Assembly (NCBI GenBank): GCA_027320175.1
Contig: DAHVLU010000024.1
Span: 16,349-80,348 of the forward strand
Length of the DNA: 64,000 bases
DNA from: Nitrososphaerota archaeon
GTDB lineage: Archaea > Thermoproteota > Nitrososphaeria > Nitrososphaerales > Gagatemarchaeaceae
Direction: 5' to 3'
The notes beneath the pieces were generated by a model that did no database searches, was not told where the DNA came from, and saw nothing but the letters and a program-made list of their open reading frames with translations. Position numbers and translations under genes: made by a program. Of the stretch, positions 3,635 to 56,633 are shown one piece after another (within the stretch, counting starts at the first letter, position 1; the number at the start of each line of letters is the position of its first letter).

Positions 3635-4351
3635 ATGCTCCCGCGTGGCGTGTCGGTCACCCTGGTCGAGCCCAAGGGGCCTGTCAACATCGGCCACGTG
3701 GCCAGGCTGATTCAGAACTTCGGGGTCGAAAAGCTGTACCTGGTCGAGCCCAAGGCGGACCTTTCCGTGGCGGCCATCTACGCTTCTCATGCCTCCGCCG
3801 TTCTGGACCGGGCGGTGATCACGACGTTCGAGCAGGTCAGGAAGGAGCACGAGCTGCTGGTTGCCACCACCGCGGTGCGGGCGACCAAGGGGTCCAACGT
3901 CGTCCGCAGGATGGCGAGGGTGGACCGCCTCCATGAGATCCTTTCGTCGTCGGCCTCGTCTTCACTGGTCTTCGGCAGGGACAGCACTGGACTGACCAAC
4001 GAAGAAATCGGGATGTGCGATGCCACCATCACCATAGACACGGGCAAGGAGTACAGGTCGCTCAACATTGGGCATGCAGTCGCCATCTCGCTCTATCTCG
4101 CGTCGAGGGGGAGCAAGGGGCGGAAGTCTGCACAGGGACGCAAGGCGAGAGAAGTCTTCGCACGCAGCTTCTACGAACTGGCGGTGGCGTCGAGGATCCC
4201 CGGGCACAAGACCAGGAACGCGCTGGACGCCGCCAGGAGGATAGCGGCGACATCCAGCATGACCGACGCCCAGCTCAACATGCTATCAGGGGTGTTCAGG
4301 AAGGCAGTGAATACGATGGATTCGGCTCAGGACCGAGGCTCGAAGACGTAG
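3635..4351 (+). CDS. SPOUT-class RNA 2'-O-methyltransferase, TrmJ/TrmH-like
   Basis: VTLVEPKGPVNIGHVARLIQNFG, LVFGRDSTGLTNEE and SLNIGHAVAISLY are SPOUT knot motifs. Has a C-terminal extension as in TrmJ. Confidence 0.75.
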   Translation: MLPRGVSVTLVEPKGPVNIGHVARLIQNFGVEKLYLVEPKADLSVAAIYASHASAVLDRAVITTFEQVRKEHELLVATTAVRATKGSNVVRRMARVDRLHEILSSSASSSLVFGRDSTGLTNEEIGMCDATITIDTGKEYRSLNIGHAVAISLYLASRGSKGRKSAQGRKAREVFARSFYELAVASRIPGHKTRNALDAARRIAATSSMTDAQLNMLSGVFRKAVNTMDSAQDRGSKT

Positions 4352-5580
4352 ACCGCCCTCCTGATCCACCGCGTGCTCTCGAACGAGAGCCTGACCGGGT
4401 AGTCGAAGCCCACCGGTCCGGGTTGATAGAGCCTCAGGCCCACCCTCCGGCCGTCGAGGGTGAGGGTGACCTCATCCCCGTCCATGGTCTGTACCGCGGG
4501 TACAACCACCACTATCCTCCCGTCAGGCTGGATGCACTCTGCCATCGATGCGAGGGCGTCGTTGTACACCCTGGCAGCGTCCTCGACCATGGCGCGGGCT
4601 GTGGCGGTCCTGGGCCTCGCGTCAAGCCTGGGCAGAAGGAGCGGCTCGGTGACGATGCCGTTCACCTTCGTCCCTCTGAGCATCCTCTGTAGGTCTCGGG
4701 CGTCTCCCTTCCTGATGTCGTAGCCCATGTCAGTCACGCCCCCGATGGACCATCGCAGGTTCTCCCTCGCTTCTTGGACGCGGCTGGCGCGCGAATCGAC
4801 CCCCAGACAGCGCAGTGACTTCGCCAGTGCCTCGACCAGGATCGTTCCTGCGCCGCAGAATGGATCCAGCAGGGTCTGGCCCGGCGCGAGCCCGGCCAGG
4901 TTCACCAGGGTCCTGGCGAGGCGCGGAGAGAGCGCGATGTCAGGGTGGGGGGCCGGGCGCCGGGTCCCTCTATGACGCATCTTGGCCGAGTCGGGGACCC
5001 AGGCAGTCGGCGCGAGCGCGAAGCCTCCGTGGTATGGGAACGCGACCACGTCGGCCGACCCCCTCGCAAGCACCTGTTCGGAGAGCAGCTCGTTTCCGTC
5101 GGGCCTGAGCAGACGGACTTTCCTGAGCCCCTTCGCCCTGAGGCCGTCGAGCATCGACCTGACCAGGTCCTCATAGTCGTCCTCCGCGATGCCGTACCCG
5201 CTGAGGGATACGTTGGACTTCTCTTCGAGGTGCGAGGACAGGAGGTCGACCAGCTTGGGCTGGTCGGATGATGCGTTGTCAACCACTTCGGTTATCGGGC
5301 CGCACTTGTGCGCCCCGGACAGCTCCCCCAGGAACCGCGGCGCGAGGTGGTCGACGTGGAGCACAGACAAGCGCTCGACGGGCTCCTCTGCCCGCTGGAT
5401 GTCCCGCCCGAAAAGCGCGCAGGCCTCGAGGACAGAGAGCTTCCCGAAGGCAAGCACGAGCGCCACCTCGTCAGACTCGAGCAGGGAGGGCGGAAGCGTG
5501 AAGGGCAAGCGGTCCCGCTCGACCTGGCCCACGGTATTAAGCGTGGGCCGCCCGACCACCGGATTGGAAGTGGGGTCCAT
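4327..5580 (-). CDS. Trm11/Trm14-like N2-guanine RNA methyltransferase family protein with atypical motif IV
   Basis: PDIALSPRLARTLVNLAG...LLDPFCGAGTILVEA (SAM motif I). The position of the usual DPPYG motif reads GIVTEPLLL. Confidence 0.6.
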   Translation of the reverse strand: MDPTSNPVVGRPTLNTVGQVERDRLPFTLPPSLLESDEVALVLAFGKLSVLEACALFGRDIQRAEEPVERLSVLHVDHLAPRFLGELSGAHKCGPITEVVDNASSDQPKLVDLLSSHLEEKSNVSLSGYGIAEDDYEDLVRSMLDGLRAKGLRKVRLLRPDGNELLSEQVLARGSADVVAFPYHGGFALAPTAWVPDSAKMRHRGTRRPAPHPDIALSPRLARTLVNLAGLAPGQTLLDPFCGAGTILVEALAKSLRCLGVDSRASRVQEARENLRWSIGGVTDMGYDIRKGDARDLQRMLRGTKVNGIVTEPLLLPRLDARPRTATARAMVEDAARVYNDALASMAECIQPDGRIVVVVPAVQTMDGDEVTLTLDGRRVGLRLYQPGPVGFDYPVRLSFESTRWIRRAVYVFEPRS

Positions 5581-5681
5581 GAAAGGCAGCCCATGGCGGG
5601 TTGGAAGACCGGGCGAGTGGAACCGACCCGCTGAAGCTTAATTAGGGGTCGCCGAAGCGCCTTTTTCGAAGGTCGTTTCGG

Positions 5682-6203
5682 TTGCACGGCTCGAACTATC
5701 GCCAGCAGAAGGGGATGTTCTACAACAAGAAGTTCGCCCCGGGCGCCCCGAACCCCAAAGTCGCGCGTTTCACAACCGGAAAGTACAGGCCTGACTACGA
5801 CTTTCTGTTCAAACTGGTCTCCGAGGGCAAACTGCAGATCCGGCACAACGCCCTCGAAGCGGCCAGGGTCGCCGCAAGCAAGAAAGTGACGCTCGTTGGA
5901 GAGGAGAACTTCCTTCTCAGAGTAGTGACCTATCCGCACCTCGTGCTCAGGGAAAACAAGATGATTGCCACCGCCGGCGCAGACAGGCTGCAGGAAGGGA
6001 TGAGGAAGGCCTTCGGCAAGCCGATCGGACTGGCGGCCAGGGTGGGCATAGGCAGCGTCGTGCTCGAGCTGAGCGTCAAGGCGGAGAACTTCGAGAAGGG
6101 GAAGGAAGCCATGTGGGCCGCCGCGACCAAGCTTCCGATGAAGACCCACACGGAGATAATCAAACTGAGAGAGGAAGCGGCGCCGACTCAGGAAGCGGTC
6201 TAG
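5682..6203 (+). CDS. rpl10e: 50S ribosomal protein L10e (uL16)
   Basis: KVARFTTGK...QIRHNALEAARVAASK...MRKAFGKP pattern of L10e. TTG start with TATA-like CTTAATTA ~40 nt upstream. Confidence 0.9.
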   Translation: MHGSNYRQQKGMFYNKKFAPGAPNPKVARFTTGKYRPDYDFLFKLVSEGKLQIRHNALEAARVAASKKVTLVGEENFLLRVVTYPHLVLRENKMIATAGADRLQEGMRKAFGKPIGLAARVGIGSVVLELSVKAENFEKGKEAMWAAATKLPMKTHTEIIKLREEAAPTQEAV

Positions 6204-6303: not shown

Positions 6304-7335
6304 ATGACGGTCAGGATAGACGAAGCGAAGGTGTTCGAGATAATCGAGTCGAAGAAGCCGAAGGTGGTGCTTGTCAACGCCCCGGGCGGGCTGCTCAGGC
6401 AGACCAAGGAGATGATGGAGCGGGTGAAAGCGAAGTACGGTGTGAATTCGATACTGTCGGGAGACAGCTGCTTCGGGATATGCGACACCGCTGACGACGA
6501 CGTGGAGAAGCTCCAGGCCGACCTGGCGCTGCACATCGGCCACAACGCCGCGGTGACGGAGGTGGGCGACCACACCTATCTGATCGACGCCGTGGACGAC
6601 GTCGACTTCGGCGAGGTCACGGAGTCCGCTGCCAGGGTCATGGCGCCGTACCGGCGCGTCGGGCTCGCCACATTCAGCCAGCACCTGCACCAGCTTGGTC
6701 CAGTGAAGAAGAAGCTCGAATCCAAGGGGTTCCAGGTGAAGGTCGGCGGAGGGAACAACCTGATGCTGGAAGGGCAGGTCTTCGGATGTGACTTTTCGAC
6801 GCCCTACCCCATACGCGACGACGTCGACGCATTCGCCCTGCTCGGGGAAAGCGAGTTCCATGCTGTGGGGCTGGCCCTCGCCACAGGGAAGCCAACTTTC
6901 ATGCTGGACCCGTACATGAACGAGGTGACCGACATGAAGGAGGCGGCCGAAGAGAGGAGGAAGAGGGCGATTCTCGCCGTGTACAAGGCGAGGGACGCCA
7001 GGGTCTTCGGCGTCATCACGGGCCTGAAAGAAGGCCAGAAGATGCTGGGGAGGAGCAAGTGGATAGCCAAGCGTCTGGAGATGAACGGGAGGAAGGTCGT
7101 CCAGCTTGCAATGAGAGAAGTGACCCCGGAGAGGCTAGCCCCCCACAGGGAGATCGAAGCCTTTGTCCAGACGGCCTGCCCGAGGATATCCATCGACGGC
7201 TTCACATTCGACAGACCGGTGCTCTCAATCCCCCAGGCCGACGCTTTAGTGGCACTTATTGAGGGGAGGGAACCGGGGGAGTTCCTTGAACGTGCGAAGT
7301 GGATCGAACTCACGGTGGGGCTGATTAAGAAATGA
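6304..7335 (+). CDS. dph2: 2-(3-amino-3-carboxypropyl)histidine synthase (diphthamide synthesis, Dph2)
   Basis: 343 aa with Dph2-like layout (VLVNAPGGLL, CFGICD, ACPRISID cysteine positions). Confidence 0.8.
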   Translation: MTVRIDEAKVFEIIESKKPKVVLVNAPGGLLRQTKEMMERVKAKYGVNSILSGDSCFGICDTADDDVEKLQADLALHIGHNAAVTEVGDHTYLIDAVDDVDFGEVTESAARVMAPYRRVGLATFSQHLHQLGPVKKKLESKGFQVKVGGGNNLMLEGQVFGCDFSTPYPIRDDVDAFALLGESEFHAVGLALATGKPTFMLDPYMNEVTDMKEAAEERRKRAILAVYKARDARVFGVITGLKEGQKMLGRSKWIAKRLEMNGRKVVQLAMREVTPERLAPHREIEAFVQTACPRISIDGFTFDRPVLSIPQADALVALIEGREPGEFLERAKWIELTVGLIKK

Positions 7336-7907
7336 AAGAGACAAAGAAGGCAAGCGTCCTCCCAGGAGACAAGGTGGCCGTCTCAGAGGAGTTCCTCCCC
7401 GGCGTGCACACGTACGAAGCTTCGGGAGTGATCAGGGCCCTGACGGCCGGGTCAGTCATGCGGGACATGAGGACCATGGAGATCTCCGTGAAGCCCTCGG
7501 CCCAGCCGGAGCTGATCAAGGTGGACGACTGGGTGACAGGGCAGGTCGAGGGGTCCCAGGCCAACTCCGCCAACGTCCACATCTACTTCCACAACGGGAA
7601 GCCGACCTTCAAGGACTTCTCCGGGATGCTCTCGCTGAGGGGGCTCTCTGGAGGCGGGAGGGGCGCGCGAAGGACCACTCCTGTCAAGACAGGGGACGTC
7701 GTGCGGTGCAGGGTGTTCAGCCTGGTCAACGGCATCATCCACCTCAACATCGACGAGCCGGACATGGGGGTGGTGGCCGCCCTCTGCGGGAACTGCGGCA
7801 GGCACCTGCTCAAGGGGAACGCGACCAGGGTGAAGTGCGACGAATGCGGTAACGTGGAGGAGAGGAAGCTGGCCAGGGACTTCGGGACTACGCCCATAGA
7901 GCCCTAA
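7332..7907 (+). CDS. csl4: Exosome complex RNA-binding subunit Csl4
   Basis: LPGDKVAVSEEFLPG N-terminal domain, S1-like middle, C-terminal zinc ribbon CGNCGRHL...CDECG. ATGA overlap with dph2. Confidence 0.85.
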   Translation: MKETKKASVLPGDKVAVSEEFLPGVHTYEASGVIRALTAGSVMRDMRTMEISVKPSAQPELIKVDDWVTGQVEGSQANSANVHIYFHNGKPTFKDFSGMLSLRGLSGGGRGARRTTPVKTGDVVRCRVFSLVNGIIHLNIDEPDMGVVAALCGNCGRHLLKGNATRVKCDECGNVEERKLARDFGTTPIEP

Positions 7908-10396: not shown

Positions 10397-10960
10397 ATGC
10401 GGGTCCCGCTTGACAGTTATCTGAAGTCGCCAGGAGCGAAAGTGTTCTCGTTGGTGGTACGGGTGCCCTTCGCCCCGCTGGACATTGACCTCGGCCACCT
10501 GGCAAGAGGAAAATGGAACTCCGCGGTGGACAGGTTCCGGGTGTGGTACCTGCCTGGCGGCGGCGGGCCCGTGTGCTATGTGATGGTCAGGAAGTTCGAG
10601 CCTGTGGAAGGGGTGCTGCTCTTCGGCCACATGGTCGTGAACCTCGCAGAAGAACAGGAGGTGAAGAGGGAGTGGAGCTTCACGGTCGGGATCCTGAGCA
10701 ACGACGAAGTCAGGGCCAGAGCGATGCTAAACTCGATGCTTGACATTCCTCCGTCCTTCCACAAACGCAACGAGCTGAAGGTCGTAGAGAAGCGTTGGAG
10801 GAGCGATCCGGCGGCGGGCATGAGATTCCTGGCGAATGTGCACTCCGCCATGAACTCGGCCCCGGCTGCCAGTGGCAGGGCCTACAAGCTGGAGTTCGAC
10901 CCGCCGCCTGAACTGATGGCGGAGCTGAAGCGAGGCTTGGGCGCCTGGTGGAAAGAATAG
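10397..10960 (+). CDS. Hypothetical protein
   Basis: 187-aa ORF with host-like G/C-ending codon usage. No motif I recognise. Confidence 0.5.
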   Translation: MRVPLDSYLKSPGAKVFSLVVRVPFAPLDIDLGHLARGKWNSAVDRFRVWYLPGGGGPVCYVMVRKFEPVEGVLLFGHMVVNLAEEQEVKREWSFTVGILSNDEVRARAMLNSMLDIPPSFHKRNELKVVEKRWRSDPAAGMRFLANVHSAMNSAPAASGRAYKLEFDPPPELMAELKRGLGAWWKE

Positions 10961-11806: not shown

Positions 11807-11900
11807 ATAGTGAAGGCAGGGAGACAATTTCGACCGAGTGTCCCAAAACGGTTTCCAAACTGCTCAACGCTTAATATCCGACCCCGCCGAGCCCGTCCCG

Positions 11901-12677
11901 TTGTTTCTGGCCAAGACTGCGACCGCCAACGAGTGGAAGGCGATTGCCGCTGCGGTCAAGACGCTCGTAGAGGAGGCGACGTTCGAAGCCAACAGTGAGG
12001 GCCTGTCCTTCAGGGCCATGGACCCTTCTCATGTGGCTTTGGTCGACCTGACCCTGCCAAATTCAAGCTGGCAAGCATATCAGTGCGACAAGCCATTCAA
12101 GTTCAGCGTGCGTGTAGAGGACCTTGTCAAGACCATGAATCGTTCAGACCCGAAGGATTCGGTAACCATTGCGGACAGTGATCCTGATTCGAAAGAGGAT
12201 GCATCGGACGAGGGAATCTGGGTCGTCTTCGAGAACGGCTATAAACGCAAGTTCAACATCCATCTCATTGAGAGCACGGCCGGGGCCGCCCCAATTCCCA
12301 AACTCGACTTGCAGGCAAAAGCCACTCTTACGATGAAGATTTTCGAGAAAGTGCTTTCTGACGTAAATGTGGTCTCAGACCAGGTGACGATTCAGGCAAC
12401 GGCGGACAAGCTATCGTTCTCCGGCAAATCGGATGTTGGCAAGGCCAGCATTACCCTCGCAAAGAACGACGCCGACGTGTTGGAACTGCACTCGGAAGTG
12501 GAGAACAAGGCTACATATTCGATCGACTATCTGAATTCTATTCTTCGCGCCCTTTCGGGGGTAGCAGACACGGTTCAGATTCAGTTCAGCACGAAGAAAC
12601 CAATTCGAACTGAAATGTCCCTCAATTCGCAGGGAGCGGTGCTGGCACATTTTCTCGCTCCTAGGGTTTCTGATTAG
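11901..12677 (+). CDS. pcn: DNA polymerase sliding clamp PCNA
   Basis: FLAKTATANEWKAIAAAVKTLVEEATFEANSEGLSFRAMDPSHVALVDL and a C-terminal AHFLAPRV are PCNA-like. TTG start at 11901 sits ~29 nt after TATA-like CTTAATAT. The ORF track start at 11838 adds a non-conserved extension. Confidence 0.85.
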   Translation: MFLAKTATANEWKAIAAAVKTLVEEATFEANSEGLSFRAMDPSHVALVDLTLPNSSWQAYQCDKPFKFSVRVEDLVKTMNRSDPKDSVTIADSDPDSKEDASDEGIWVVFENGYKRKFNIHLIESTAGAAPIPKLDLQAKATLTMKIFEKVLSDVNVVSDQVTIQATADKLSFSGKSDVGKASITLAKNDADVLELHSEVENKATYSIDYLNSILRALSGVADTVQIQFSTKKPIRTEMSLNSQGAVLAHFLAPRVSD

Positions 12678-12679
12678 TC

Positions 12680-13228
12680 TCAGAGACTAGCTTCGGGCCT
12701 CTTGTGAATGCACACACCTCCCCTTCCACCCCCTTTTGAGAAGTTGCAGTTCATGCACAACACGGCATACCCTGCCGGAAAGCCGTTTCGTATCAGCCAA
12801 GAGTTAAGGCGGAAGCTCCCCCTCGGCAACCCTAGTGCTTTGACCTGCTTGTTATCGACGCCGTCGACATGATCGATGGTCAGAAAATCCACTTCAGATT
12901 CCCCGCAACAAGCGCATCTGTAGGCGCCGGTAGAATAGTGGCCAAGTACCATCTTCCTGGCTTCGGCCCTTTGCCTTCGGGCGCTTTCCCGTGCCATTCT
13001 TCTCACTTGTTCGGGCCTTTCTGACATTCTCCTCAGATACGCACGGCGTTGCCACTCGGCGTTCTTCTTTCTGAAACAAGAAAGGCAGTATTTCTGAGGC
13101 CAGCTGAGCACCTCATACGGCTGGCCGCACAATATGCACAGTCTGGCGACACCATGTGGTCGTGGTGGAGGAGCGTGGCTACTCGTGTGCGTCCCCTCCT
13201 GAAGGAACCTCTCCTCCCGAAGTAGCAT
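12680..13228 (-). CDS. Zinc-ribbon + HNH endonuclease (paralog 1)
   Basis: N-terminal LCILCGQ...KYCLSCF ribbon, basic helical linker, then CACCGESEVDFLTIDHVDG...NSWLIRNG...LCMNCNFSKG (HNH). ATG at 13228 or 13264; either overlaps the upstream paralog. Confidence 0.8.
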   Translation of the reverse strand: MLLREERFLQEGTHTSSHAPPPRPHGVARLCILCGQPYEVLSWPQKYCLSCFRKKNAEWQRRAYLRRMSERPEQVRRMARESARRQRAEARKMVLGHYSTGAYRCACCGESEVDFLTIDHVDGVDNKQVKALGLPRGSFRLNSWLIRNGFPAGYAVLCMNCNFSKGGGRGGVCIHKRPEASL

Positions 13229-13697
13229 GGCCTCGCGCCCGAGTCTTGTGCACGCATTCCCCATGCTTGGCTTTGCTCATGTTGCAGTTCTGGCACAGCA
13301 CCTGGTACCCGGCCGGGAGTCCCTTCTTGACGAGTAGATAGTAGAAACTGCTCCCCAGCCGCCTGACTATCTTGCGTTCCGCGGATCCGTCGTTGTTGAT
13401 GTGGTCCAAAGCAAGGAACTCCGGCTGCATTTCGCCGCAGCAGGCGCATGCCATGGTCCCGTACGAGTAGTGCGAAAACACCTGCTGCCAAATCTTCGCC
13501 CGGAACCGTACGGAAGTCGCTCTTCCCTTTGCCCTGTAGTGCTCTATGTTCCTGCGACGAGACCTTGTCGCACTTTCCAATATGACTGTCGGCAGACACC
13601 TCTGACAGTACTTGGCGTGGCCACTTCTAGACCTGAACTGCTGTCCACAGACCGCGCACTTGAACGGGTTCTTCGGAGGCGCGTATCCACCCATCAA
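13179..13697 (-). CDS. Zinc-ribbon + HNH endonuclease (paralog 2)
   Basis: FKCAVCGQ...KYCQRC ribbon, then CACCGEMQPEFLALDHINN...LCQNCNMSKAKHG. Same architecture as the downstream paralog. Confidence 0.8.
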   Translation of the reverse strand: MMGGYAPPKNPFKCAVCGQQFRSRSGHAKYCQRCLPTVILESATRSRRRNIEHYRAKGRATSVRFRAKIWQQVFSHYSYGTMACACCGEMQPEFLALDHINNDGSAERKIVRRLGSSFYYLLVKKGLPAGYQVLCQNCNMSKAKHGECVHKTRARGHATSGGEVPSGGDAHE

Positions 13698-13718: not shown

Positions 13719-14147
13719 TTAACGTCCAATCCCCCCCACGAACATCCCCAGCTCTTCCATTGTATAACACACCACGTCCGCGTGCTCCATCACAGGCCCC
13801 ACGTACTCCTTCACCTTCGCCGCGGCGGCCTGGGCCACCTCTGCCAGCGCCACGCACCTGACCGATGGGTTCACCTCCTTGACCCTTCTGAACTTCCAGT
13901 CCACGTAGGCCGCATTCTTCTCCATCCAGGTGAGCGCAATCCCCCTCCTGCTGGTGCTCTGCCAGCACTCTATGACCATCTGAGAGTTTGGGAGATAGAA
14001 GTCGACCACATACGACCTGCCGCCCACTGGGAAGACGGCGTGGGTCATTCTCGTAATGCCGTACTGGAGGAGGACCCCCTCCACCCGCTCCTCCTGCTCA
14101 GTCAGAGGGACGAGAGCATGCATCCTGTTCATCCATCGAGTTGACAT
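13719..14147 (-). CDS. PD-(D/E)xK-fold nuclease-like protein (DUF559/Vsr-like core)
   Basis: YVVDFYLPNSQMVIECWQS resembles the vDF...lvIEvdG core of DUF559/Vsr-type endonucleases. Start is ~30 nt downstream of the palindromic TATA. Confidence 0.55.
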   Translation of the reverse strand: MSTRWMNRMHALVPLTEQEERVEGVLLQYGITRMTHAVFPVGGRSYVVDFYLPNSQMVIECWQSTSRRGIALTWMEKNAAYVDWKFRRVKEVNPSVRCVALAEVAQAAAAKVKEYVGPVMEHADVVCYTMEELGMFVGGIGR

Positions 14148-14176
14148 GGTTGGCCACAGATAGTATGGAAATGAGC

Positions 14177-14183
14177 TATATAA
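14177..14183. promoter_or_regulatory. Palindromic TATA box (TATATAA) in the divergent intergenic region
   Basis: About 30 nt from the ATG at 14147 on the minus strand (near-leaderless). About 50 nt from the TTG at 14233 on the plus strand, with GGAG at 14221-14224. Confidence 0.5.
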
Positions 14184-14232
14184 CTACCACAAAGGTTTTA
14201 TCATGCGCATCTGACGAAATGGAGCTTGAATC

Positions 14233-16707
14233 TTGCCATTTAGTCGCCAGATGGCCTTGGGCGCTCGTTTCGTGGCCTTCGGAGGTGAGGATGAGTTCCC
14301 ACACGCAGAAGTAGAACGTGTAGTCTTTGACGCCCTCCGTCGGGATAGGCAGAGTACGGTGGCAATCATGGCAGATGGGATCAACCTTGATCGCCTTCAT
14401 CTCCCCGACTCGGCCCGTCTCGACCCGAAGCGCGACTACCGCTGGTCCGGATATCTCGTCCAGAGGAAAGTCCAGAAGCGCGCTAAGCGAGTTATCTTTG
14501 GAACCTATGCCGGGTGGTTCCAATGGTATATGCGATATCAAAGATTCAGGGCGTTCCATGCGGTCGTACTTATCGAACCTCGGTCGGCAGTCTCGGACGG
14601 TGAGGTGGGGGGTTATGTCGACGGCCTCCTGGCGAGGCTGCAACCCAAAATCCGAACATTAGTCATAGTATCAAAAGATGCAGGCGAAGTCCACCCTTCG
14701 ACAGATGAACGGCGCACCAAGGAGGTCGTCAGGGCTCTTCTGTACGGTACAAGGTTGACGCGGCCAGAGGTCTTGCGGCGCCTCGGTTTGACTTTCGTTC
14801 CCATTTCAGACGCTACGGTTGCGAAAGTGTTCCCAAAGCACGCCTGGCGTATCTCGAAAAGGCACCCTCGCTACCAGTTAGACGAGTATGAGGATGAACT
14901 GGTACAGGGGATGGTGCCATGGTTCCCTCCGGGTTATGTTGATGGGAAACCGGACCAGATAGAGCAGCACTTCCGGAGAGAACGGCGGTTCAAACGCGAG
15001 CTTGAGTTCCCGGACGACATGCTTGCGTCAAGAGCCCTCGAAGACGCAGGGAGGTCCCTGTGGGTGACAGCTCCCTATGAGAGCGAGAAGTTACGGGAGT
15101 GGCTCGAGCTACTCAACAAGAAGGAAGACATCAGACTGGAAAAGGTTCTGAGACTAAAGGAAGAGGTGCCCGCCGACCAGTGGCAGCGGCTACTGTCGCC
15201 GTCAAGTTACCAGGTGAGACGAGTTCTTGACAGGTTGGCATCCGAAGGAAAGTTGGAGAAGAGAAAATGGTACCGCGAGCAGGGGCGGCCGGCCATGGCA
15301 TATGTGGAGCGAGGTAAGGCACCGTTCTCGGAAAATCGGTGCGGCCGGTGCGCCTTTTATGCCCCGGCCAAAAGGAGATGCAACCTCTGGTGGCTGGCGA
15401 ATAAGACCGAAGTGTTCTACGGTCCTAAATGGAAGCAACCCGGTTCCCACGCCACGAGATTCGAACTCCATAAGATGCGATATTCTTCGAGGATAGGCCC
15501 GCGTTCCTCTGCTTGCTTCCGGTTCTTGGACAAGAAGCGGGATCACCTTAGGAAGGCGATTCCAGACCGTTGCGAGATTTGTGGCCAAGCACTCTCCGGA
15601 GTCGGCAGAGTTGCAGTTACCTGCCTTCACTGTAAGACAGAATATGTGAAAACCGAGAAGTACGATTCACCAAGGGTGCGGGTCAGGGTCGCCTATGAAC
15701 ACGAGTTCAACCGCGTCTACACCGAAGTAACAGGTGGCGTCGCAAGAACAGACATGCAAGCGTGGAAGAAGAAGGTGAAGGAAGAAATCAACTCACCACG
15801 GCAGGGTTCAACCGAAGACCGAGAGGACTCGCAGGCAGAAGAACATGAAGAGGCCGAGGCAGAACCACCAAGGGTTTGGCAGGAGTACGACGCTGTGCTC
15901 CAGGCAGGCGTAGACAGACTCGCATTGGAGACCGACATAACCAAGTTTCTTTCCATCGCAATGGCGGAAAGCGCCCTTAACGCGACCCGCAGGATTGCCC
16001 AATTCGCGAAGTTGAACGTGAACGACGTGGCCTTGCCAGTAGCTAGGATTGAGCGATACCTCGGCTTGATTAGGGGGGCACCTGCAGACAAATTCCTCCA
16101 GTATGAAGCGCAGGTAATGAAACAGTATTGGCAAGTGTATGGGCTCGCCGTGGCGGGGACGGAGCTCTGGGTCGGGCCGAGGAAAAGGTCAAGGTTCGTG
16201 CGAGAGCTTGTGAATACTGATGCTGGGAGAGCGACAGGATACTCGCCAATGGACTCGGCGATAAATTGCCTTCACCAGAGGAGGCTGAGGCAAGCCGAGC
16301 GAGTCAACCGAGAAGTGGGATACGCCGGGAGGTGCGATGGCTTTCTACACCGAAGACACCACAACTCGAGGAGGAACGGTTTGGTTTTCGATTTGATAGA
16401 TCCTTTCAAGTTCGCGGACAGAGAAGAGTTACTTCTGGTAGCTCTAGACCGGGGATTAACGTGGGAAAACTTCGGGATTGAGACTGACAGGAGGGGTTCG
16501 ACGTTCTATTACCCGATGAGTTCTAGTCTTCGAAAATTGAACGAGATTGGAGAATCCGCGGACAATCTTGTCGTCGAGTATGAGGGGAGAGCCATGCGGC
16601 TGATAGCGGCGTATAGGTTGCATGCCGAAAGGATGTTGGAATGGCTTGGAGCTCAGCGTGTTTCTGAGCCCTCGGATGTGTTCATTTTGAGGTTTCCAGC
16701 GGGATAA
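14233..16707 (+). CDS. Large fusion protein: N-terminal HTH/wHTH + zinc-ribbon region, acidic linker, C-terminal Cas1-like catalytic domain
   Basis: C-terminus: YEAQVMKQYW (Glu625), SPMDSAINCLHQRRL, DGFLH (His706), LVFDLIDPFK (Asp720/723), then Cas1-type terminal helices. N-terminus: wHTH-like SSYQVRRVLDRLASEGKLEKRKW..GRPAMAYV, CGRC (370), CEIC (447), CLHC (464). TTG start at 14233 with GGAG 8 nt upstream; first ATG is at 14251. Confidence 0.8.
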   Translation: MPFSRQMALGARFVAFGGEDEFPHAEVERVVFDALRRDRQSTVAIMADGINLDRLHLPDSARLDPKRDYRWSGYLVQRKVQKRAKRVIFGTYAGWFQWYMRYQRFRAFHAVVLIEPRSAVSDGEVGGYVDGLLARLQPKIRTLVIVSKDAGEVHPSTDERRTKEVVRALLYGTRLTRPEVLRRLGLTFVPISDATVAKVFPKHAWRISKRHPRYQLDEYEDELVQGMVPWFPPGYVDGKPDQIEQHFRRERRFKRELEFPDDMLASRALEDAGRSLWVTAPYESEKLREWLELLNKKEDIRLEKVLRLKEEVPADQWQRLLSPSSYQVRRVLDRLASEGKLEKRKWYREQGRPAMAYVERGKAPFSENRCGRCAFYAPAKRRCNLWWLANKTEVFYGPKWKQPGSHATRFELHKMRYSSRIGPRSSACFRFLDKKRDHLRKAIPDRCEICGQALSGVGRVAVTCLHCKTEYVKTEKYDSPRVRVRVAYEHEFNRVYTEVTGGVARTDMQAWKKKVKEEINSPRQGSTEDREDSQAEEHEEAEAEPPRVWQEYDAVLQAGVDRLALETDITKFLSIAMAESALNATRRIAQFAKLNVNDVALPVARIERYLGLIRGAPADKFLQYEAQVMKQYWQVYGLAVAGTELWVGPRKRSRFVRELVNTDAGRATGYSPMDSAINCLHQRRLRQAERVNREVGYAGRCDGFLHRRHHNSRRNGLVFDLIDPFKFADREELLLVALDRGLTWENFGIETDRRGSTFYYPMSSSLRKLNEIGESADNLVVEYEGRAMRLIAAYRLHAERMLEWLGAQRVSEPSDVFILRFPAG

Positions 16708-16808: not shown

Positions 16809-17087
16809 TTGAAATTCCCAAAGGAGATACGCAGGAACTGCCCGTGGTGTCATAAGCACACGGTCCACTCCGTCGCTCTCTACAAGAGAGGGAAGGAGCG
16901 AGCAGGTTCGTGGGGAGCCAGGAGGCAGGCGGGGAGGAAGCGCGGCTACGGGGGCCAGAAGTTCCCTGAGCTCATCAGGACCGCCAAGACCACCAAGAAG
17001 GCGACCCTGCGGCTGAAATGCAAGGATTGCAACCGTGAAATGATGACCTACGGCATAAGGTTGAGGAAGGCGGAGATCGCGGCATGA
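16809..17087 (+). CDS. rpl44e: 50S ribosomal protein L44e
   Basis: CPWCHKHTVH...KCKDCN zinc-binding L44e pattern. TTG start. Confidence 0.9.
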   Translation: MKFPKEIRRNCPWCHKHTVHSVALYKRGKERAGSWGARRQAGRKRGYGGQKFPELIRTAKTTKKATLRLKCKDCNREMMTYGIRLRKAEIAA

Positions 17088-18273: not shown

Positions 18274-20678
18274 ACCAGCTGGTAGACCAGTATCGCGTTG
18301 AAGCACTGCAGGTTTGAGTTCCCGGGACACGGCGAGTTGCCGTTCTCCGCCGCCGCCAGGCTCGGAGAGACGTAGGCTAGTCTGAACGGCCCGGAGCTGT
18401 TCGTCGGGAAGTTGAAGCTGCTCGGATAGCTGAAGGCTTCGACCGGGGGCGCTCCGTTGGACCCGAACGTATAGGTGGGACTGAAGCCGACCGAGGAGGT
18501 GCCGCCCGAGGTGGTAGAGTAGATGTATCCAGCCAGCTTGAAGGGGAGGAGCAGTCCGAAGAGGCTGTTCTGCATGGCGTAGGGGGTCAGGTTGAAGTCG
18601 TCTACTGTGGTGCACGGCTGCCCCGCCGGCGTCAGCTCGCCGGGCGAGGTCCCAGAACAATCCAGGTACTGCGACTCGTTCAACCCTCCGATGCGGATGA
18701 ACCACTGCTTCTTGCTCTCGTCGCCGCCGCCTGCGGTGAAGCCCCCGCCGCTCGGGACCTGCAGGACGAAGTACTGCTGCGTACTGCCGGAACTGGTGCT
18801 GGTCAGGGGGAAGATGCTACCGGTGATGAAGATCGCGACGTAAGTGGGCCTGCCGCCCCCCATGCTCTCGGCCATGGAGGCGGCCTGGGTGGCGTTGGAC
18901 ATCAGCAGCTGTCCCACCTGGGCGATCCTCGTGCTGTTGAGGGTGGCGTTGTCGACCACCGTCGTCCTGTTGCCCATCACCGCGAACCAGTATCCGTAGT
19001 CCCACCATGAAATCACCACCGAGTTGGTCGGCGTGTTCTGGCGCACCCACTGCAGCGTCTGTATCCAGTCGGTGAACGCCGAGCGGGAGTAGACGGTGGC
19101 TCCGTTGACAAGGCTCACTCCGGAGTCGGCGGGGCTGTTGTCGCAGAACAGCTGCCCGCTGTATGTGCACTGGATCGGGTTGGGGATCCAGTAGGAGCCC
19201 GCGGGAAGGACGATGAGCGCTATCACAGCTATGGAGAAGACGACCTTCATCTCGTTCCGGGAGGTGGGCGCCGCCTTCTTCTTGACCAAGGGGGTGGTGC
19301 TCGGCTTGGCGATGGCGAAGGCCAGCTCAGCGAAGCCGATGCCTCCGAGGATTCCGAGAGCGACCGAAGAGTAGACGAGGAGCCTGGAGAATGCAGCCGA
19401 GAAGTAGAGGCCGGTAAGCCCGAAGACCAGGGCGTAGACCATGGGGACCCCCCTGCGCCTGAAGGCGATCAGGGCCCCGGCCATCCCGAACGAGAGCAAT
19501 AGCGCGTAGGACGTGAAGTAGTCCGCGCCGGTGGGAGCCGCCTGCTCGGCGACTGAGCGGACGAGGGCGTTGCTGACGCTGGCCCAGGGCGCGATCACGG
19601 TCAGGTACCTTAACGTGAGCCCCTTGACCAGCCCGAAGCTAAGGAGTGCCAGACCCCCGAGGCCGAAGCCGAAGATGAACTTCGCCAGGGTGGCCCTGTA
19701 CTCGGCGGGCTTGGACCACGTCTTGGCCCACTGGGCCACGAGCACGAAGACCGTCCCACCGATCATCGCGAGGCCGACCGGGTTGGTGACTATCGTTACG
19801 CCAGGCCTTGGAAAGATGGCGCTTACGAAGAGGGTCGAGGCTGTGAAGGTGACGATGGCAGGCGAGAAGGCTGCCAGGTCCAGGTTCAGGAAGGGGACCA
19901 GGAGGAAGACGAGGGCGAAGGCTCCGCTGAAGAAGTCGCCTCCCCCCCAGGCGGTGTTGGCATAGCCGATCATCGCTCCACTCAGAAGTCCCCAGACGAC
20001 CCTCCCGCGCACCGACCTCTCCTTGTCGAATACGCCCAACATCAGGTAGCTGGCGGCTACGAACAGGAGTATCGCGAGAGGCTCGGACTTGAACCAACCC
20101 AGGTTCCCTCTTTCGATCAGTGGGGGAGAGACCGCGAAGACCAGTGCGGCGAAGAGGCCCGCCGCGTCGCCTGCGATCTTCCTCACCAGGAAGTAGAAGA
20201 TCACGGCCGTTATCGCGCCGAAGAACACGGGGAGGAGGACCAGGAGGTCGTAAAGCGATATCGGGACGCCGAAGACGTTGTGGACCAGCAGGAAGATCAG
20301 GGCTCCGGCGAGCTGAAGCCCCCCCTGTGAGGTCGCGGCCACGTTCCTGCCGACCGGGAACCATGTCTGGATGTCGTGCCAGTAGAAGTAGCCCTGCATG
20401 GTGTGGCAGGCGGTGTAGACCGTCGGGCCGCAGTTAGCGGGGTTGGCGAAGAGGGCGGAGTAGAGCCCCTGCTGGTTTGCCAGGTTCACGATGTGCTGGG
20501 CCGCGTAGTAGTCGTAATACGGGTCGAACTCGTTCAGGTAGAAGCCGTACTTCGCCGCATAGGCCCTGATGAGGACGGCGATGGAGAAGACAATGGCGAG
20601 CACCATGGAAATCATGAGGGCCCTGCGGGATACGGTGGGACGCTTCATGAAAGACCGGAGGGTGTCGAGTGTACCCAA
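18258..20678 (-). CDS. aglB: Archaeal oligosaccharyltransferase AglB (STT3 family)
   Basis: 806 aa with a multi-TM N-terminal half and a WWDYGYW motif. Confidence 0.9.
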   Translation of the reverse strand: MGTLDTLRSFMKRPTVSRRALMISMVLAIVFSIAVLIRAYAAKYGFYLNEFDPYYDYYAAQHIVNLANQQGLYSALFANPANCGPTVYTACHTMQGYFYWHDIQTWFPVGRNVAATSQGGLQLAGALIFLLVHNVFGVPISLYDLLVLLPVFFGAITAVIFYFLVRKIAGDAAGLFAALVFAVSPPLIERGNLGWFKSEPLAILLFVAASYLMLGVFDKERSVRGRVVWGLLSGAMIGYANTAWGGGDFFSGAFALVFLLVPFLNLDLAAFSPAIVTFTASTLFVSAIFPRPGVTIVTNPVGLAMIGGTVFVLVAQWAKTWSKPAEYRATLAKFIFGFGLGGLALLSFGLVKGLTLRYLTVIAPWASVSNALVRSVAEQAAPTGADYFTSYALLLSFGMAGALIAFRRRGVPMVYALVFGLTGLYFSAAFSRLLVYSSVALGILGGIGFAELAFAIAKPSTTPLVKKKAAPTSRNEMKVVFSIAVIALIVLPAGSYWIPNPIQCTYSGQLFCDNSPADSGVSLVNGATVYSRSAFTDWIQTLQWVRQNTPTNSVVISWWDYGYWFAVMGNRTTVVDNATLNSTRIAQVGQLLMSNATQAASMAESMGGGRPTYVAIFITGSIFPLTSTSSGSTQQYFVLQVPSGGGFTAGGGDESKKQWFIRIGGLNESQYLDCSGTSPGELTPAGQPCTTVDDFNLTPYAMQNSLFGLLLPFKLAGYIYSTTSGGTSSVGFSPTYTFGSNGAPPVEAFSYPSSFNFPTNSSGPFRLAYVSPSLAAAENGNSPCPGNSNLQCFNAILVYQLVQPSS

Positions 20679-23333: not shown

Positions 23334-25409
23334 ATGCGTCGGGGGATGATGAATTCGGGGTACACGCTGGTAATCTGTGAGAAGCCAGACGCCGCTAGAA
23401 GGGTGGCAGACGCCCTGTCTGGGGGGAGCAGCAGGGTCATGACGGTGGACGGCGCCTCGGCCTACTCCCTTTCCCGAGGGGGGGAAGAATTCGTAGTCTG
23501 CTCGGCACAGGGGCACCTCTACGCCGTGTCGGACGCCTCGGAGGAGAGGACGGTCTACCCGGTCTTCGACCTGGAATGGTACCCGTCCGACCTGGTAGAC
23601 GAAGACGACGCCGGCGCGGGCAGGCGCATCTCTGCCATCAAGAAGTTGTCGGCAGGAGCATCGAGGTTCGTGAACGCCTGCGACTTCGACGTCGAGGGCG
23701 AAACGATAGGCTACAATCTGCTGAGATATGCGTGCGGGGGCAAGGAGAAGACCGCCCTCAGGGCGAAGTTCTCGACGCTGACAGAGGATGACCTGAGGAG
23801 GGCGTTCGACGGCCTTGAACCTCAGTCAGGGCAGGGGCTCGCCCGGGCTGGAAGGGCGAGGCACTCTATCGACTTCGTGTGGGGGGTCAACCTCTCCAGG
23901 GCGCTTTCGCAGTCGGCTTTGGGCTGGGGGCACAGGTACAAGACGGTGAGCATGGGGCGAGTGCAGGGGCCCACCCTGGGGTTCCTGGTGGAAAGGGAGA
24001 AGGCGATACGAGAGTTCGTCCCCCTGCCGTATTGGAGAGTCACGGGCAAGTTCCGCAGGGAGGGGAAGGAGTTCACCGCTGCATATTCTCAGGACAAAGT
24101 CCCGACCGAGCGCCTGGCAAGGGAGGTCCACGACGGCTGCGTCGGGAAGAAGGCGGTGGCGGCTTCGGTCAGGAGGAGCGCAGTCCAAGTGGGACCCCCC
24201 ACCCCCTTCGACATCGGCGAGCTCCAGAAGGAGGCGTACAGGGCCTTCGGTTACACCCCGAGCAGGACGCTACAGGTCGCCGAGCGCCTCTACCTCGGAG
24301 CCCTGATCTCATACCCCCGGACGGGGAGCCAGAAGCTCCCGCCAACACTCGGCCTGAGGAAGATAGTCTCGGGGATTTCGAAGATGCCTGAGTATTCTGA
24401 AATCGCCGGACGGATACTGAAGTCCGACGCCAGGCCAGTCCAGGGGGCGAGGTCAGACCCCGCCCATCCGGCCCTGCATCCTACGGGGGAGAGGCCGCGG
24501 AGGGCCCTCGACCGCTCGGAGAGGTCCATCTTCGACCTCGTCGTGAGAAGGTTTCTTGCTGCCTTCGGGCCCTCGGCGAGGCGTGAGCTCGTCGACGTCA
24601 CCCTCGCCGTCGGCAGCCACGAGTTCAGGCTTGCAGGAGGGAGGACGCTTTCCCCAGGCTGGATGGAGTACTACGGAAGGTATGCGGGGCTCAGGGACAG
24701 AGAAGTTCCACCGATATCCGAGGGGGAAAGCCTCGATGTCTCCGATGTAGTGGTCGAAGGCAGATTCGACCAGAAACCTGTTCGGTATAACCCAGGCAGC
24801 CTGCTGGAAAAGATGGAGAGAGAGGGGATTGGGACCAAGGCTACGCGAGCGGACGTCATAGCTACGCTGGTGGGAAGAGGGTATGTCGCGGGGGAAGGCA
24901 TGGAAGTGACAGACCTTGGGTTCGCGGTCGCCGAGGCGATGGAGAAGTTCGCGCCGGAGGTCATGGGCATGGGCCTCACGCGCGGCATCGAAGAGAAGCT
25001 GGACGCCGTAGAACGAGGGAAGGAAGAGGAGGCGGAGATGCTCCGGGAGGCGGTCAGGTCCATGGCGAGCCAGCTTGCCGCTCTGGGCGCAGAGGAAGAC
25101 GCCCTGGGGAAGGAGTTGGACTCGGCCCTGACCGGCGCAGCCGCCAAGGCCTTCGCGCTGGGCAGATGCCCCGTCTGCAAGACCGGGGAGCTGAGACTGA
25201 TCAGGTCGAAGACTTCGGGCAAGCGATTCGTCGGGTGCTCGAACTACCCCTCGATCTGTCGCGCTTCCGCCCCTCTGCCTCAAAGGGGGACGGTCAAGGC
25301 TACTTCGAAGACGTGCGAGCGCTGCTCATGGCCCATCGTCCACATCGTGGGGAAAGGGCGCCCCTGGAGGCTCTGCCCTAACCCGGATTGTCCAGGGAAG
25401 AAGAGATGA
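23334..25409 (+). CDS. topA: DNA topoisomerase, type IA
   Basis: TOPRIM (LVICEKPDAARRVA, DFDVEGE), active-site tyrosine context LISYPRTGSQKL, C-terminal zinc fingers (CPVCKTGEL...GCSNYP, CERCSWP). Confidence 0.9.
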   Translation: MRRGMMNSGYTLVICEKPDAARRVADALSGGSSRVMTVDGASAYSLSRGGEEFVVCSAQGHLYAVSDASEERTVYPVFDLEWYPSDLVDEDDAGAGRRISAIKKLSAGASRFVNACDFDVEGETIGYNLLRYACGGKEKTALRAKFSTLTEDDLRRAFDGLEPQSGQGLARAGRARHSIDFVWGVNLSRALSQSALGWGHRYKTVSMGRVQGPTLGFLVEREKAIREFVPLPYWRVTGKFRREGKEFTAAYSQDKVPTERLAREVHDGCVGKKAVAASVRRSAVQVGPPTPFDIGELQKEAYRAFGYTPSRTLQVAERLYLGALISYPRTGSQKLPPTLGLRKIVSGISKMPEYSEIAGRILKSDARPVQGARSDPAHPALHPTGERPRRALDRSERSIFDLVVRRFLAAFGPSARRELVDVTLAVGSHEFRLAGGRTLSPGWMEYYGRYAGLRDREVPPISEGESLDVSDVVVEGRFDQKPVRYNPGSLLEKMEREGIGTKATRADVIATLVGRGYVAGEGMEVTDLGFAVAEAMEKFAPEVMGMGLTRGIEEKLDAVERGKEEEAEMLREAVRSMASQLAALGAEEDALGKELDSALTGAAAKAFALGRCPVCKTGELRLIRSKTSGKRFVGCSNYPSICRASAPLPQRGTVKATSKTCERCSWPIVHIVGKGRPWRLCPNPDCPGKKR

Positions 25410-26635: not shown

Positions 26636-27250
26636 TTGAGCCGTATCTGCGTGATAACCTCGAAGGCGCGGGCGTACTATGCTCTCGTATCGAGGTTGAG
26701 GAGAGCTGGCCTCCCGTTCTCGAGTCTGGTCTCTGAATCGAGCTTCGACGACTGCGACGTCGTGCTTACAACGGAAGACGAATCCGAGCGTTTCGGCGAC
26801 AAGGCCATGGTGCTGGAGCGCCTGGACGAGAGTCCAGGCATATTCAAGGGCCAGGTGGTGTCCCGCTTAGATGGAGAAGAAGACCTGATCCTCGTCGGGG
26901 TGGACCCTGGCAAGAGGACCGGAGTGGCCGTGTTCTATGGGCGGACCAAGCTTTCCTCCAATACGTTCGACTCCCCCGCGGCCGTCTCCTCGAGGGTCGC
27001 GGCGTACGCCAGGGCCCTGCCTGGCAGCCGGGTCCTCGTCAGGGTGGGGAACGGCAACAGGCATCTGGCAGCGAGACTGGCGGATGGTTTCGGCAGGGAG
27101 ATCCCCTCGGCTACCGTGGAGCTGGTCGACGAATCTGGTACTTCGAGGGCCCCGAAGATGAAGGGAGTCCAACGGGACCAGGCGGCGGCCGCCAAGATCG
27201 CGTTCAGGAGGGGAGAGGTCGTCAGCCACCCGACCAGAAGTCGTGGCTGA
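26636..27250 (+). CDS. Predicted RNase H-fold (RuvC/YqgF-like) nuclease
   Basis: LILVGVDPGKRTGVAVFYG resembles the first catalytic strand of RuvC/YqgF-type nucleases; later VELVDESGTS. Confidence 0.45.
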   Translation: MSRICVITSKARAYYALVSRLRRAGLPFSSLVSESSFDDCDVVLTTEDESERFGDKAMVLERLDESPGIFKGQVVSRLDGEEDLILVGVDPGKRTGVAVFYGRTKLSSNTFDSPAAVSSRVAAYARALPGSRVLVRVGNGNRHLAARLADGFGREIPSATVELVDESGTSRAPKMKGVQRDQAAAAKIAFRRGEVVSHPTRSRG

Positions 27251-41115: not shown

Positions 41116-41517
41116 GTGGTTCCCCGTCCCATGGGCGCTCTTACGCCGAAGCAGCTCGCGTTCCTCAAGGCGCACGAAGTGTGCAGGCTCGCCACCGCCT
41201 CGAAAGATGCCAAGCCCCATGTGGTCCCCGTGATCTACGCCCTTGACGGGGAGGACGTGATCGTCGCCGTCGACTACGGGACCAAGAAACTGAAGAATCT
41301 CAGAGAGAACAAGGAGGTCGCCTTGGTGATCGACGAGTATCACCCCAACAGGGCGGTCATGGTCGAAGGCACCTGTGAAATCCTGGAACGGGGGAAAGAG
41401 TACCTCCGCCTCCTGCGGATCCTCTTCGACCGGTTCGAGACCTATCGGAAGAACCCGTGGGGAGAGGGCGAGTCTCCCATCCTGAAGATCAGGCCCACGA
41501 AGGCTGTCAGCTGGTGA
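41116..41517 (+). CDS. Pyridoxamine 5'-phosphate oxidase-family (PPOX-class, likely F420/FMN-dependent) protein
   Basis: CRLATASKDAKPHVVPVIYALDGEDVIVAVDYGTKKLKNLRENKEVALVIDEY. Confidence 0.7.
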   Translation: MVPRPMGALTPKQLAFLKAHEVCRLATASKDAKPHVVPVIYALDGEDVIVAVDYGTKKLKNLRENKEVALVIDEYHPNRAVMVEGTCEILERGKEYLRLLRILFDRFETYRKNPWGEGESPILKIRPTKAVSW

Positions 41518-56610: not shown

Positions 56611-56633
56611 AGAGCCGGCCTTTTCGCTGGTTT

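Follow-up and report, generated by a model that had tools for sequence, protein, structure and literature searches.

In a 64-kb stretch of a Nitrososphaerota contig (DAHVLU010000024.1), here called the window, we identified a two-gene module made up of Cas1L, a multidomain protein ending in a very divergent Cas1 catalytic domain (open reading frame (ORF) 14233-16707, + strand), and p142, the product of a divergent neighbour gene (13719-14147, - strand) that is predicted to be a small nuclease of the PD-(D/E)xK fold. From comparisons of homologous loci and from structural models, we judge the chances to be about even (roughly 0.5) that Cas1L-p142 is an accessory DNA-processing module serving conflict or defence, or the processing of breaks, with endonuclease genes as hitch-hikers. 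The work followed up an original prediction, made from this DNA alone, of a solo Cas1-type protein outside CRISPR and casposon contexts. The loci compared with the window, comprising carriers of homologues, distant relatives and empty sites, are labelled L001-L027.

Cas1L ends in a divergent Cas1 catalytic domain

The Cas1L ORF was confirmed at the predicted position and encodes 824 residues; the protein belongs to clade I of its family. Its TTG start codon was invariant in the eight loci aligned, and the Met7 start chosen by some gene callers would give a protein of 818 residues. The Cas1-type α-helical catalytic domain occupies residues 550-824 (15880-16704, + strand) and was detected by Foldseek, Pfam, TIGRFAM, and PADLOC. 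When the window protein was searched alone, Pfam PF01867 scored 20.2 bits against a cutoff of 22.3 (E = 3.7e-4) and aligned to the His/Asp block only, while TIGR00287 covered residues 619-747 with a score of 13.8 against a cutoff of 71.7 (E = 0.023). The PADLOC Cas1 models matched residues 586-736 (E = 1.8e-5). Across the family, 20 of 32 aligned homologues matched PF01867 at E ≤ 0.01, with a best E-value of 2.1e-7.

An AlphaFold model of Cas1L built from the family alignment had a mean predicted local distance difference test score (pLDDT) of 77, with values of 85-96 over most of residues 550-824. In a Foldseek search of this model against the PDB, the top 50 matches were all Cas1 proteins or casposases, with target-normalized template modelling (TM) scores of 0.52-0.59. 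Archaeoglobus fulgidus Cas1 was the best match (4n06, E = 3.4e-8), followed by a casposase (6opm, E = 1.7e-7), and the type I-C Cas1 8d3p was also among the matches. Residues E625, N678, H706, D720, and D723 were at least 90% conserved in 32 Cas1L-family sequences. In an hhalign comparison that was itself weak (E = 0.17), H706, D720, and D723 aligned with H208, D218, and D221 of Escherichia coli Cas1, which are catalytic by mutagenesis (PMC4046053). E625 falls within the TIGRFAM and PADLOC aligned spans, and its E. coli counterpart would be E141, a correspondence at the level of the span and not of single columns. Identity to other Cas1 proteins, at 10-18%, was too low for a reliable phylogeny. 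Because the call is carried by family-level profile matches together with the predicted structure, we consider it firm: the C-terminus is a real but very divergent Cas1 catalytic domain. The claim that the last ~265 residues form such a domain, with Glu625, His706, Asp720, and Asp723 at catalytic positions, thus held up on both profile and structural comparison, with all four residues kept.

p142 is an obligate partner with a predicted nuclease fold

An opposite-strand gene of ~142 codons was first seen upstream of Cas1L in three homologue contigs. A tblastn map placed p142 directly upstream and divergent in 17 of 17 Cas1L loci with intact upstream DNA, in addition to the window. The two loci without p142, L010 and L020, carry truncated Cas1L remnants only. 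The pairing holds in clade II, where identity falls to ~30-33% for Cas1L and is ~48-52% for p142, and pairwise identities of Cas1L and p142 are correlated (r = 0.60). The 85-nt spacer between the two genes (14148-14232) contains two back-to-back TATA-like boxes; blocks CTATATAAC and ACCACAAAGGTTTTATC, each ~30 nt from its start codon, were invariant in the eight-locus alignment. This arrangement suggests that the spacer is a shared, conserved promoter region. Since the partner is present in every intact locus, in two clades whose Cas1L proteins are ~33% identical, with correlated divergence and a conserved promoter region, we regard the pairing as obligate. The description of a "solo" Cas1 was therefore not sustained, with p142 as a constant partner and HNH endonuclease genes adjacent. 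Additional copies were also seen: L001 has a p142 paralogue in tandem, as well as another HNH gene 4 kb downstream (7014-7457 and 13737-14480, both - strand), and in L004 a p142 paralogue and an endonuclease of cluster c6 lie 7 kb from the module (19019-20146, + strand).

None of the 111 p142 homologues had a Pfam domain, and searches of p142 against Pfam, NCBIfam, and PDB sequences gave no match. A single weak PHROG match was to an unannotated family (E = 0.0068), and the PADLOC family PDC-S69 matched weakly. Since sequence searches gave no identification, the assignment of p142 as a nuclease depended on structure prediction. The predicted structure was confident (pLDDT 92.6), and its meaningful Foldseek matches were PD-(D/E)xK nucleases, at modest E-values from 1.7e-3 upward. 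These included the Can2 nuclease domain, AF1548, BbvCI, the R2 endonuclease, and a XisH-like protein, as well as Mus81/Eme1 and FANCM-type nuclease domains, Cas4 SSO0001 (4ic1), and BstEII. Residues E19, E20, D49, E60, and K85 are invariant in the family. In the model, p142 has the αβββαβ core of the PD-(D/E)xK fold, with D49 and E60 on adjacent strands. The canonical ExK motif reads E60-C-W, and K85, on the helix that comes next, may stand in for the missing lysine.

Predicted DNA-binding regions precede the Cas1 domain

Residues ~10-230 of Cas1L (14260-14922, + strand) form an α/β domain in which strands and helices alternate, modelled with pLDDT values of ~80-93 and found only in this family. 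No sequence match to this domain was found in Pfam, the PDB, or NCBIfam. Nearly all of its fold matches were to RecA-like lobes of superfamily 2 (SF2) helicases in BFVD, a weak resemblance (E = 0.03-0.4). We considered that it might be a helicase remnant and rejected the idea, as hhalign against the DEAD/MZB helicase encoded beside the distant relative P0090 (see below) was negative and no Walker motifs were seen by eye. Residues 173-186, which the original prediction had described as resembling a helix-turn-helix (HTH), form a single helix inside this domain in the model.

The second predicted element, a winged helix-turn-helix (wHTH) region, spans residues ~261-358 (15013-15306, + strand) and consists of helices and a two-strand wing in the model. 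The segment at residues ~323-358, which had been singled out as wHTH-like, is modelled as a helix plus the two-strand wing; its profile match to an Lrs14-like regulator was weak (6cmv, E = 0.14). A cysteine-rich region follows at residues 365-485 (15325-15687, + strand), with two predicted zinc-binding modules. The three CxxC pairs noted earlier (C370/C373, C447/C450, and C464/C467) belong to a set of eight cysteines, with C383 and C428, that is invariant in the family alignment. Matches of this region to C1 and zinc-ribbon profiles were weak. The acidic linker before the Cas1 domain, read directly from the sequence, was also confirmed and is predicted to be disordered (residues 521-549; 15793-15879, + strand; pLDDT < 50). 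Immediately upstream of the Cas1 domain, the model shows this linker and zinc-ribbon strands but no obvious β-sandwich, a reading of the model itself and not of Foldseek alignment ranges. The wHTH, zinc modules, and α/β domain presumably bind and select DNA. No canonical PCNA-interacting protein (PIP) box was recognised by eye in the C-termini of Cas1L and p142.

The module lies in a cassette flanked by replication and ribosomal genes

In the window, Cas1L and p142 belong to a cassette of ~4.1 kb with four ORFs, including two HNH genes, located between PCNA (11838-12677, + strand; Pfam PCNA_N and PCNA_C) and ribosomal protein L44e (16809-17087, + strand; Pfam Ribosomal_L44, E = 5e-25). There is essentially no non-coding DNA at the cassette termini. 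The left junction is formed by HNH-type endonuclease copy a (12680-13264, - strand), whose stop codon lies 2 nt from that of PCNA and which matched PHROG HNH families (E = 7.6e-9 and 1.9e-6). Copy b (13179-13697, - strand) is a paralogue of copy a, with a CCGE...DH...NCN motif in the alignment and a weak PHROG match to endonuclease VII (E = 0.0057).

A homing-endonuclease-type gene was found downstream of p142 in nearly every locus, although its family varies. The HNH-like type also occurs in L001, L005, and L008. Cluster c6 is LAGLIDADG-like, with PDB sequence matches to I-HjeMI and I-AniI (E = 0.004-0.012); cluster c25 matched at E = 0.12 at best, and the assignment of cluster c18 rests on a motif read by eye. 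None of the endonuclease genes in this third slot matched Pfam or NCBIfam. Their GC content at third codon positions (GC3) is 0.38-0.67 in almost every locus (0.73 and 0.77 for two ORFs of c18), compared with host values of ~0.7-0.85, whereas the GC3 of p142 is always host-like. On the strength of their variable families and low GC3, we read the adjacent endonuclease genes as selfish riders with fast turnover.

The L027 locus provides an empty site with the same gene order as the window, in which only 139 bp separate PCNA from L44e. DNA homology between the two ends at the PCNA stop codon (12677) and resumes in the L44e promoter region just past the Cas1L stop. The block is likewise missing, with gene order kept, from relatives whose PCNA proteins are 70-81% identical to that of the window, closer than those of any carrier for which PCNA was seen. 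Synteny had at first suggested a vertically inherited core gene, and this idea was downgraded on finding the block missing from these closer relatives. No terminal inverted or direct repeats and no target-site duplication were found at the cassette edges beyond 8-nt chance matches, although an old insertion could have lost them. The best repeat pair (12197/16738) was discarded as a terminal inverted repeat (TIR), as one arm lies inside PCNA and the match is at chance level.

Codon composition supports acquisition of the window cassette with co-transfer of a flank. Host genes in the window have GC3 values of 0.80-0.87 (~0.82 being the host reference for copy b), compared to 0.62 for Cas1L and 0.62 and 0.71 for HNH copies a and b, respectively. 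PCNA in the window has a GC3 of 0.64, versus 0.82 for PCNA at the empty site; it is also low where PCNA adjoins the module in L001, L005, and L008, and host-like where it lies 8 kb away (L017 and L018). The low PCNA value may thus reflect a flank co-transferred with the cassette. The regional GC dip was dropped as an island marker, as the PCNA and ribosomal protein genes are also low in overall GC, and it was per-gene GC3 that revealed the real difference for Cas1L, the HNH genes, and PCNA.

All carriers hold the pair in one neighbourhood, defined by PriS-GINS, PCNA, L44e-S27e-eIF2α, RpoL, and diphthamide synthase. The exact position differs among genomes: beside PCNA, beside PriS, or between genes c8 and c1, which, judging from L026 and L027, probably encode ribosomal protein L10e and a major facilitator superfamily (MFS) transporter. 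The c8|c1 slot is common to L006, L012, and L016-L019, and is empty in the window, where c1 and c8 are adjacent (4327-6203). Throughout clade II, and at several loci of clade I, Cas1L has the GC3 of its host; together with the shared c8|c1 slot, this makes the pair look long-resident in these other genomes. In the module-free loci L026 (16078-18316) and L027 (1-1945), a cassette resembling non-homologous end joining genes (Ku, ATP-dependent ligase, and polymerase-thumb protein) lies beside the L10e gene, the same gene that borders the slot of Cas1L-p142 in clade II genomes.

Several loci record duplication or decay of the module. Contig CAWFZY010000001 carries two convergent modules (L014 and L017, at ~131.9-134.6 and ~146.6-149.3 kb) whose copies are 73% identical and differ in endonuclease type, c18 and c6, respectively. 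In other genomes, the ~12-kb block of housekeeping genes between them is found in either orientation with respect to Cas1L. Cas1L remnants take several forms: L003 has an inverted C-terminal fragment just downstream of the intact gene (10403-10618, - strand), L010 a copy truncated at its 5' end, L013 a copy with an internal deletion next to an intact p142, and L020 a short fragment. The frameshifted Cas1L copies of L004 and L018 may be assembly errors.

The pair is neither a casposon nor a decayed CRISPR locus

No CRISPR array was found in the window, and no Cas2, Cas4, or Cas3 appeared among the 25 of 38 PADLOC families listed for its 72 ORFs, in agreement with the earlier reading of the 64 kb; Cas1L was the only ORF in that scan with Cas1 matches. 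The sole polB (41507-43768), previously set aside as unrelated, does lie ~25 kb from Cas1L, and is a chromosomal polymerase because it adjoins PolD DP2 in a stretch rich in replication genes. A survey of neighbours in about 20 homologous loci found no linkage to canonical cas1 or to casposon-type PolB. Cas2 and CRISPR arrays were absent from the window and from the Pfam tables of L001-L003, the places where they were sought. These results support the earlier proposal that Cas1L is an enzyme derived from Cas1, carries DNA-binding domains of its own, and belongs to neither CRISPR nor casposons: the C-terminus aligns with Cas1, and in the loci covered the homologues stand apart from both systems. 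We conclude that Cas1L-p142 is neither a casposon nor a decayed CRISPR locus.

The module resembles the Cas4-Cas1(-Cas2) module of CRISPR systems in having a Cas1-fold domain with a Glu/His/Asp/Asp site and a dedicated PD-(D/E)xK nuclease encoded alongside, with a Cas4 among the fold matches of p142. Unlike that module, the window has no Cas2, array, or leader; the N-terminal β-domain of CRISPR Cas1 is not evident in Cas1L, which instead carries ~550 residues of α/β, wHTH, and zinc regions; and p142, read from its sequence, is minimal at 142 residues and lacks the Fe-S cysteines of Cas4. Like the casposases (Cas1-solo group 2), Cas1L is a Cas1 homologue that stands apart from CRISPR and keeps the full set of four catalytic residues; HNH nuclease and HTH functions occur in its neighbourhood as they do in casposons (PMC4046053), and Thaumarchaeota host family 1 casposons (PMC6563490). 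The cassette differs from casposons in having no PolB of its own, no TIRs, and no target-site duplication, in its size (4 kb compared to 8-20 kb), and in being mostly single copy and syntenic. Cas1L also has its DNA-binding domains fused N-terminally, whereas the HTH of casposases is C-terminal. Cas1-solo group 1 of Methanomicrobiales is likewise a stand-alone cas1 of one archaeal order, mostly vertically inherited and neither CRISPR nor casposon, but its catalytic set is incomplete (PMC4046053), while all four residues are conserved in Cas1L, and the taxon is a different one. By analogy, the pair would be most akin in its working to a Cas4-Cas1 adaptation pair or a casposase, yet it lacks the features that define either.

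The family is confined to a subset of uncultured soil Nitrososphaerales

Homologues of Cas1L numbered 36, at 33-63% identity, in metagenome-assembled genomes (MAGs) of Nitrososphaerales or Thaumarchaeota and in metagenomes; more than 25 sequence clusters contain intact ORFs of full length. The homologues of both proteins were found in MAGs from soil, peat, or sediment; a few bins bear labels other than Nitrososphaerales or Thaumarchaeota, and no named cultured species is among them. The family is thus confined to a subset of uncultured soil Nitrososphaerales. PCNA formed 1274 clusters (more than 120 at ≥ 64% identity), compared to 111 for p142 and 36 for Cas1L. These cluster counts, together with the empty-site loci, led us to downgrade a core housekeeping reading of the pair. 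No relatives of Cas1L or p142 were present in 2.9 million viral contigs, and a viral or proviral origin was rejected on that basis.

A family profile searched against 1.84 billion representative proteins returned only 127 matches and was not flooded by canonical Cas1, from which we conclude that the Cas1-like domain is highly derived. Automatic pipelines label a few family members "Cas1". The 127 matches include proteins of 1100-1400 residues with N-termini and partner genes different from those of Cas1L. One of them, P0090 (1166 residues), has the whole wHTH, zinc, and Cas1-like core (hhalign probability 99.5% over 472 columns) and follows genes for a DEAD/ResIII-MZB helicase and a metallophosphoesterase (L023, 2211-8861). 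Another, P0138, is a helicase-Cas1-like fusion of 1346 residues that shares the Cas1-like domain (hhalign probability 90%), with a RAMP-domain protein encoded next to it (L024, 1395-6565). No p142 was seen at either locus. Both contexts look defence-like or CRISPR-derived. "Distinct Cas1 forms" have been reported in Asgard archaea, together with ARAMP systems (PMC8730458), and the P0090 and P0138 types, compared by description, may correspond to them. A literature search that did not extend to the primary study of Asgard Cas1 homologues found no published description of the Cas1L-p142 family.

Other features of the window

The region from 9179 to 43768 is unusually rich in replication and repair genes. 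In addition to PriS, PCNA, and the PolB described above, it encodes a type IA topoisomerase (23334-25409), an XPD-like helicase (27222-29078), and PolD DP2 (36550-40014). An ORF-free gap at 56575-56757 contains two direct 36-nt repeats (GGGGGCTGGACAGGCTCCA[A/G]TGGAAA..GGGGTC) with 59-nt spacing and an inverted partial copy. The pair was considered as a mini-CRISPR and rejected, as there are only two direct copies and one inverted partial, ~2 kb from an Orc1/Cdc6 gene (53248-54441, - strand). We take the repeats to resemble archaeal origin-recognition boxes, and the gap is a candidate oriC, ~40 kb from Cas1L.

An Rfam tRNA match at 48504-48631 (- strand) spans 128 nt and was not found by ARAGORN; it may be an intron-containing archaeal tRNA. 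The PADLOC scan of window ORFs also returned a strong "homing endonuclease" match (E = 3e-25), mad2, mad3, and mad8, and a DpdF-like match, all reported by family and not by ORF; a DinG-type match probably comes from the XPD-like helicase. The segment at 58-64 kb has a lower GC content (0.55-0.57) and includes a PIN-domain gene.

Discussion

We propose that Cas1L would bind DNA through its winged helix and zinc modules and that its Cas1 active site would cleave DNA or transfer strands. Its partner p142 may cut or trim DNA ends for Cas1L, as Cas4 does for Cas1 in CRISPR adaptation, and the pair would act without Cas2 and without a repeat array. The two genes sit within a compact chromosomal cassette, with no terminal repeats, in a replication-gene neighbourhood near the putative oriC. 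Inheritance of the cassette would be mostly vertical, with occasional loss, relocation, and lateral replacement, and the HNH and LAGLIDADG genes probably help it to spread, with the conserved genes on either side serving as tracts for recombination. The biological role is most likely in genome conflict or defence, or in DNA-break processing, rather than in self-transposition. A defence-like reading draws support from the distant relatives, since P0090 shares its operon with helicase and metallophosphoesterase genes and P0138 is encoded beside a RAMP protein. Of the roles that the original prediction had left open (mobile element, defence, or DNA processing), Cas1-driven transposition is now disfavoured.

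Casposons insert at the 3' ends of conserved genes, and the position of the cassette could be read the same way, as that of a new mobile element moved by Cas1L: a PolB-less, casposon-like cassette that enters next to replication genes, with breaks made by p142 and the homing endonuclease. The presence/absence polymorphism with precise intergenic junctions fits such an element, as do the foreign GC3 of Cas1L in the window and several other loci, positions that vary between PCNA, PriS, and the c8|c1 slot, the genome with two copies, and the truncated remnants in L003, L010, L013, and L020; casposons, too, carry HNH nucleases (PMC4046053). We nevertheless consider it unlikely. Transposition driven by Cas1L is disfavoured because the left end is a variable endonuclease gene that leaves no conserved terminus for an integrase, because there are no TIRs or target-site duplications and almost no non-coding DNA at the ends, and because most genomes hold one copy, whose neighbourhood in the chromosome does not change between clades. 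Divergence of Cas1L also follows that of PriS and PCNA, composition is host-like in clade II, and viral contigs hold no relatives. That same constancy of neighbourhood in every carrier would suit a domesticated replication or repair factor whose location by PCNA, primase, GINS, and oriC reflects its function, with Cas1L-p142 processing branched or broken DNA at forks, flaps, or junctions. E. coli Cas1 reportedly cuts branched DNA and affects repair, as Babu et al. are said to have found in 2011 (cited in PMC4046053). Conservation of p142 is comparable to that of PCNA and PriS, its fold matches include Mus81/Eme1 and FANCM-type domains, and a Ku-ligase-polymerase cassette sits beside the L10e gene of the clade II slot in empty genomes.

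A housekeeping role of this kind is disfavoured, however, because the relatives nearest to the window organism do not have the pair at this locus, because most of the clade apparently lacks it as well, and because Cas1L in the window has a foreign codon composition. No named cultured species is among the homologues, no canonical PIP box was seen by eye, and the synteny may merely be inherited, so we hold this explanation to be doubtful. Far less probable again is a decayed, functionless remnant of a CRISPR adaptation module or casposon. The very divergent Cas1 sequence signal and the lack of partner cas genes in the window would fit decay, but ORFs are intact in more than 25 clusters, invariant positions include those of the catalytic site and the eight cysteines along with many more, the partner gene and promoter region are conserved, and the loci examined showed no cas2, array, or casposon-type PolB and TIRs. 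This pattern of conservation effectively excludes a remnant.

Several observations weigh against an accessory conflict, defence, or break-processing module, or narrow the basis for it. The Cas1 signal of the window protein alone is sub-threshold in both Pfam and TIGR00287. The fold matches of p142 are modest (E = 1.7e-3, TM ~0.5) and its ExK lysine is replaced, so that catalytic competence is presumed from the model. p142 evolves as slowly as PCNA and PriS, which would also suit a cellular role in DNA metabolism, and the surroundings are housekeeping replication genes and not a typical defence island. The cluster counts suggest that the pair occurs in a minority of the clade, an indirect measure since they compare proteins evolving at different rates. 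Assignment of c18 and c25 as endonucleases depends on motifs and one weak match, and homing is a proposed mechanism. The difference between the window and L027 might stem from loss of the block in L027, though GC3 favours an insertion in the window. As to novelty, related Cas1 oddities have already been reported in Asgard archaea, and the function proposed for Cas1L-p142 is an inferred one.

A bolder and improbable reading is that the pair represents a third, self-contained use of Cas1: a Cas2-less machine of Cas1 and a Cas4-like nuclease in which the machine's own wHTH and zinc modules select where DNA is captured, cut, or integrated. It could be a new class of TIR-less element that homes into the replication-gene region near oriC, or a defence system that needs no spacers to integrate the DNA of invaders or to destroy it. 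If this were true, Cas1L-p142 would represent an extant relative of the stages that lie between casposase and CRISPR adaptation module.

The two known settings of Cas1 are CRISPR systems, where it takes part in spacer acquisition together with Cas2, and casposons, where it acts in transposition alongside PolB; a third, if true, would broaden the repertoire known for this integrase fold. What sets Cas1L apart is the combination of an intact site, its own DNA-binding domains, and a constant PD-(D/E)xK partner with no repeats and no polymerase. A Cas1 and Cas4-like pair without Cas2 bears on how the adaptation module was assembled, and Cas1L could be the source of a compact enzyme that integrates or cuts DNA and brings its own targeting. 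For its hosts, uncultured soil Nitrososphaerales whose accessory gene content has been little studied, the module offers a case in which homing-endonuclease genes gather around a cassette in the chromosome close to a candidate archaeal replication origin.

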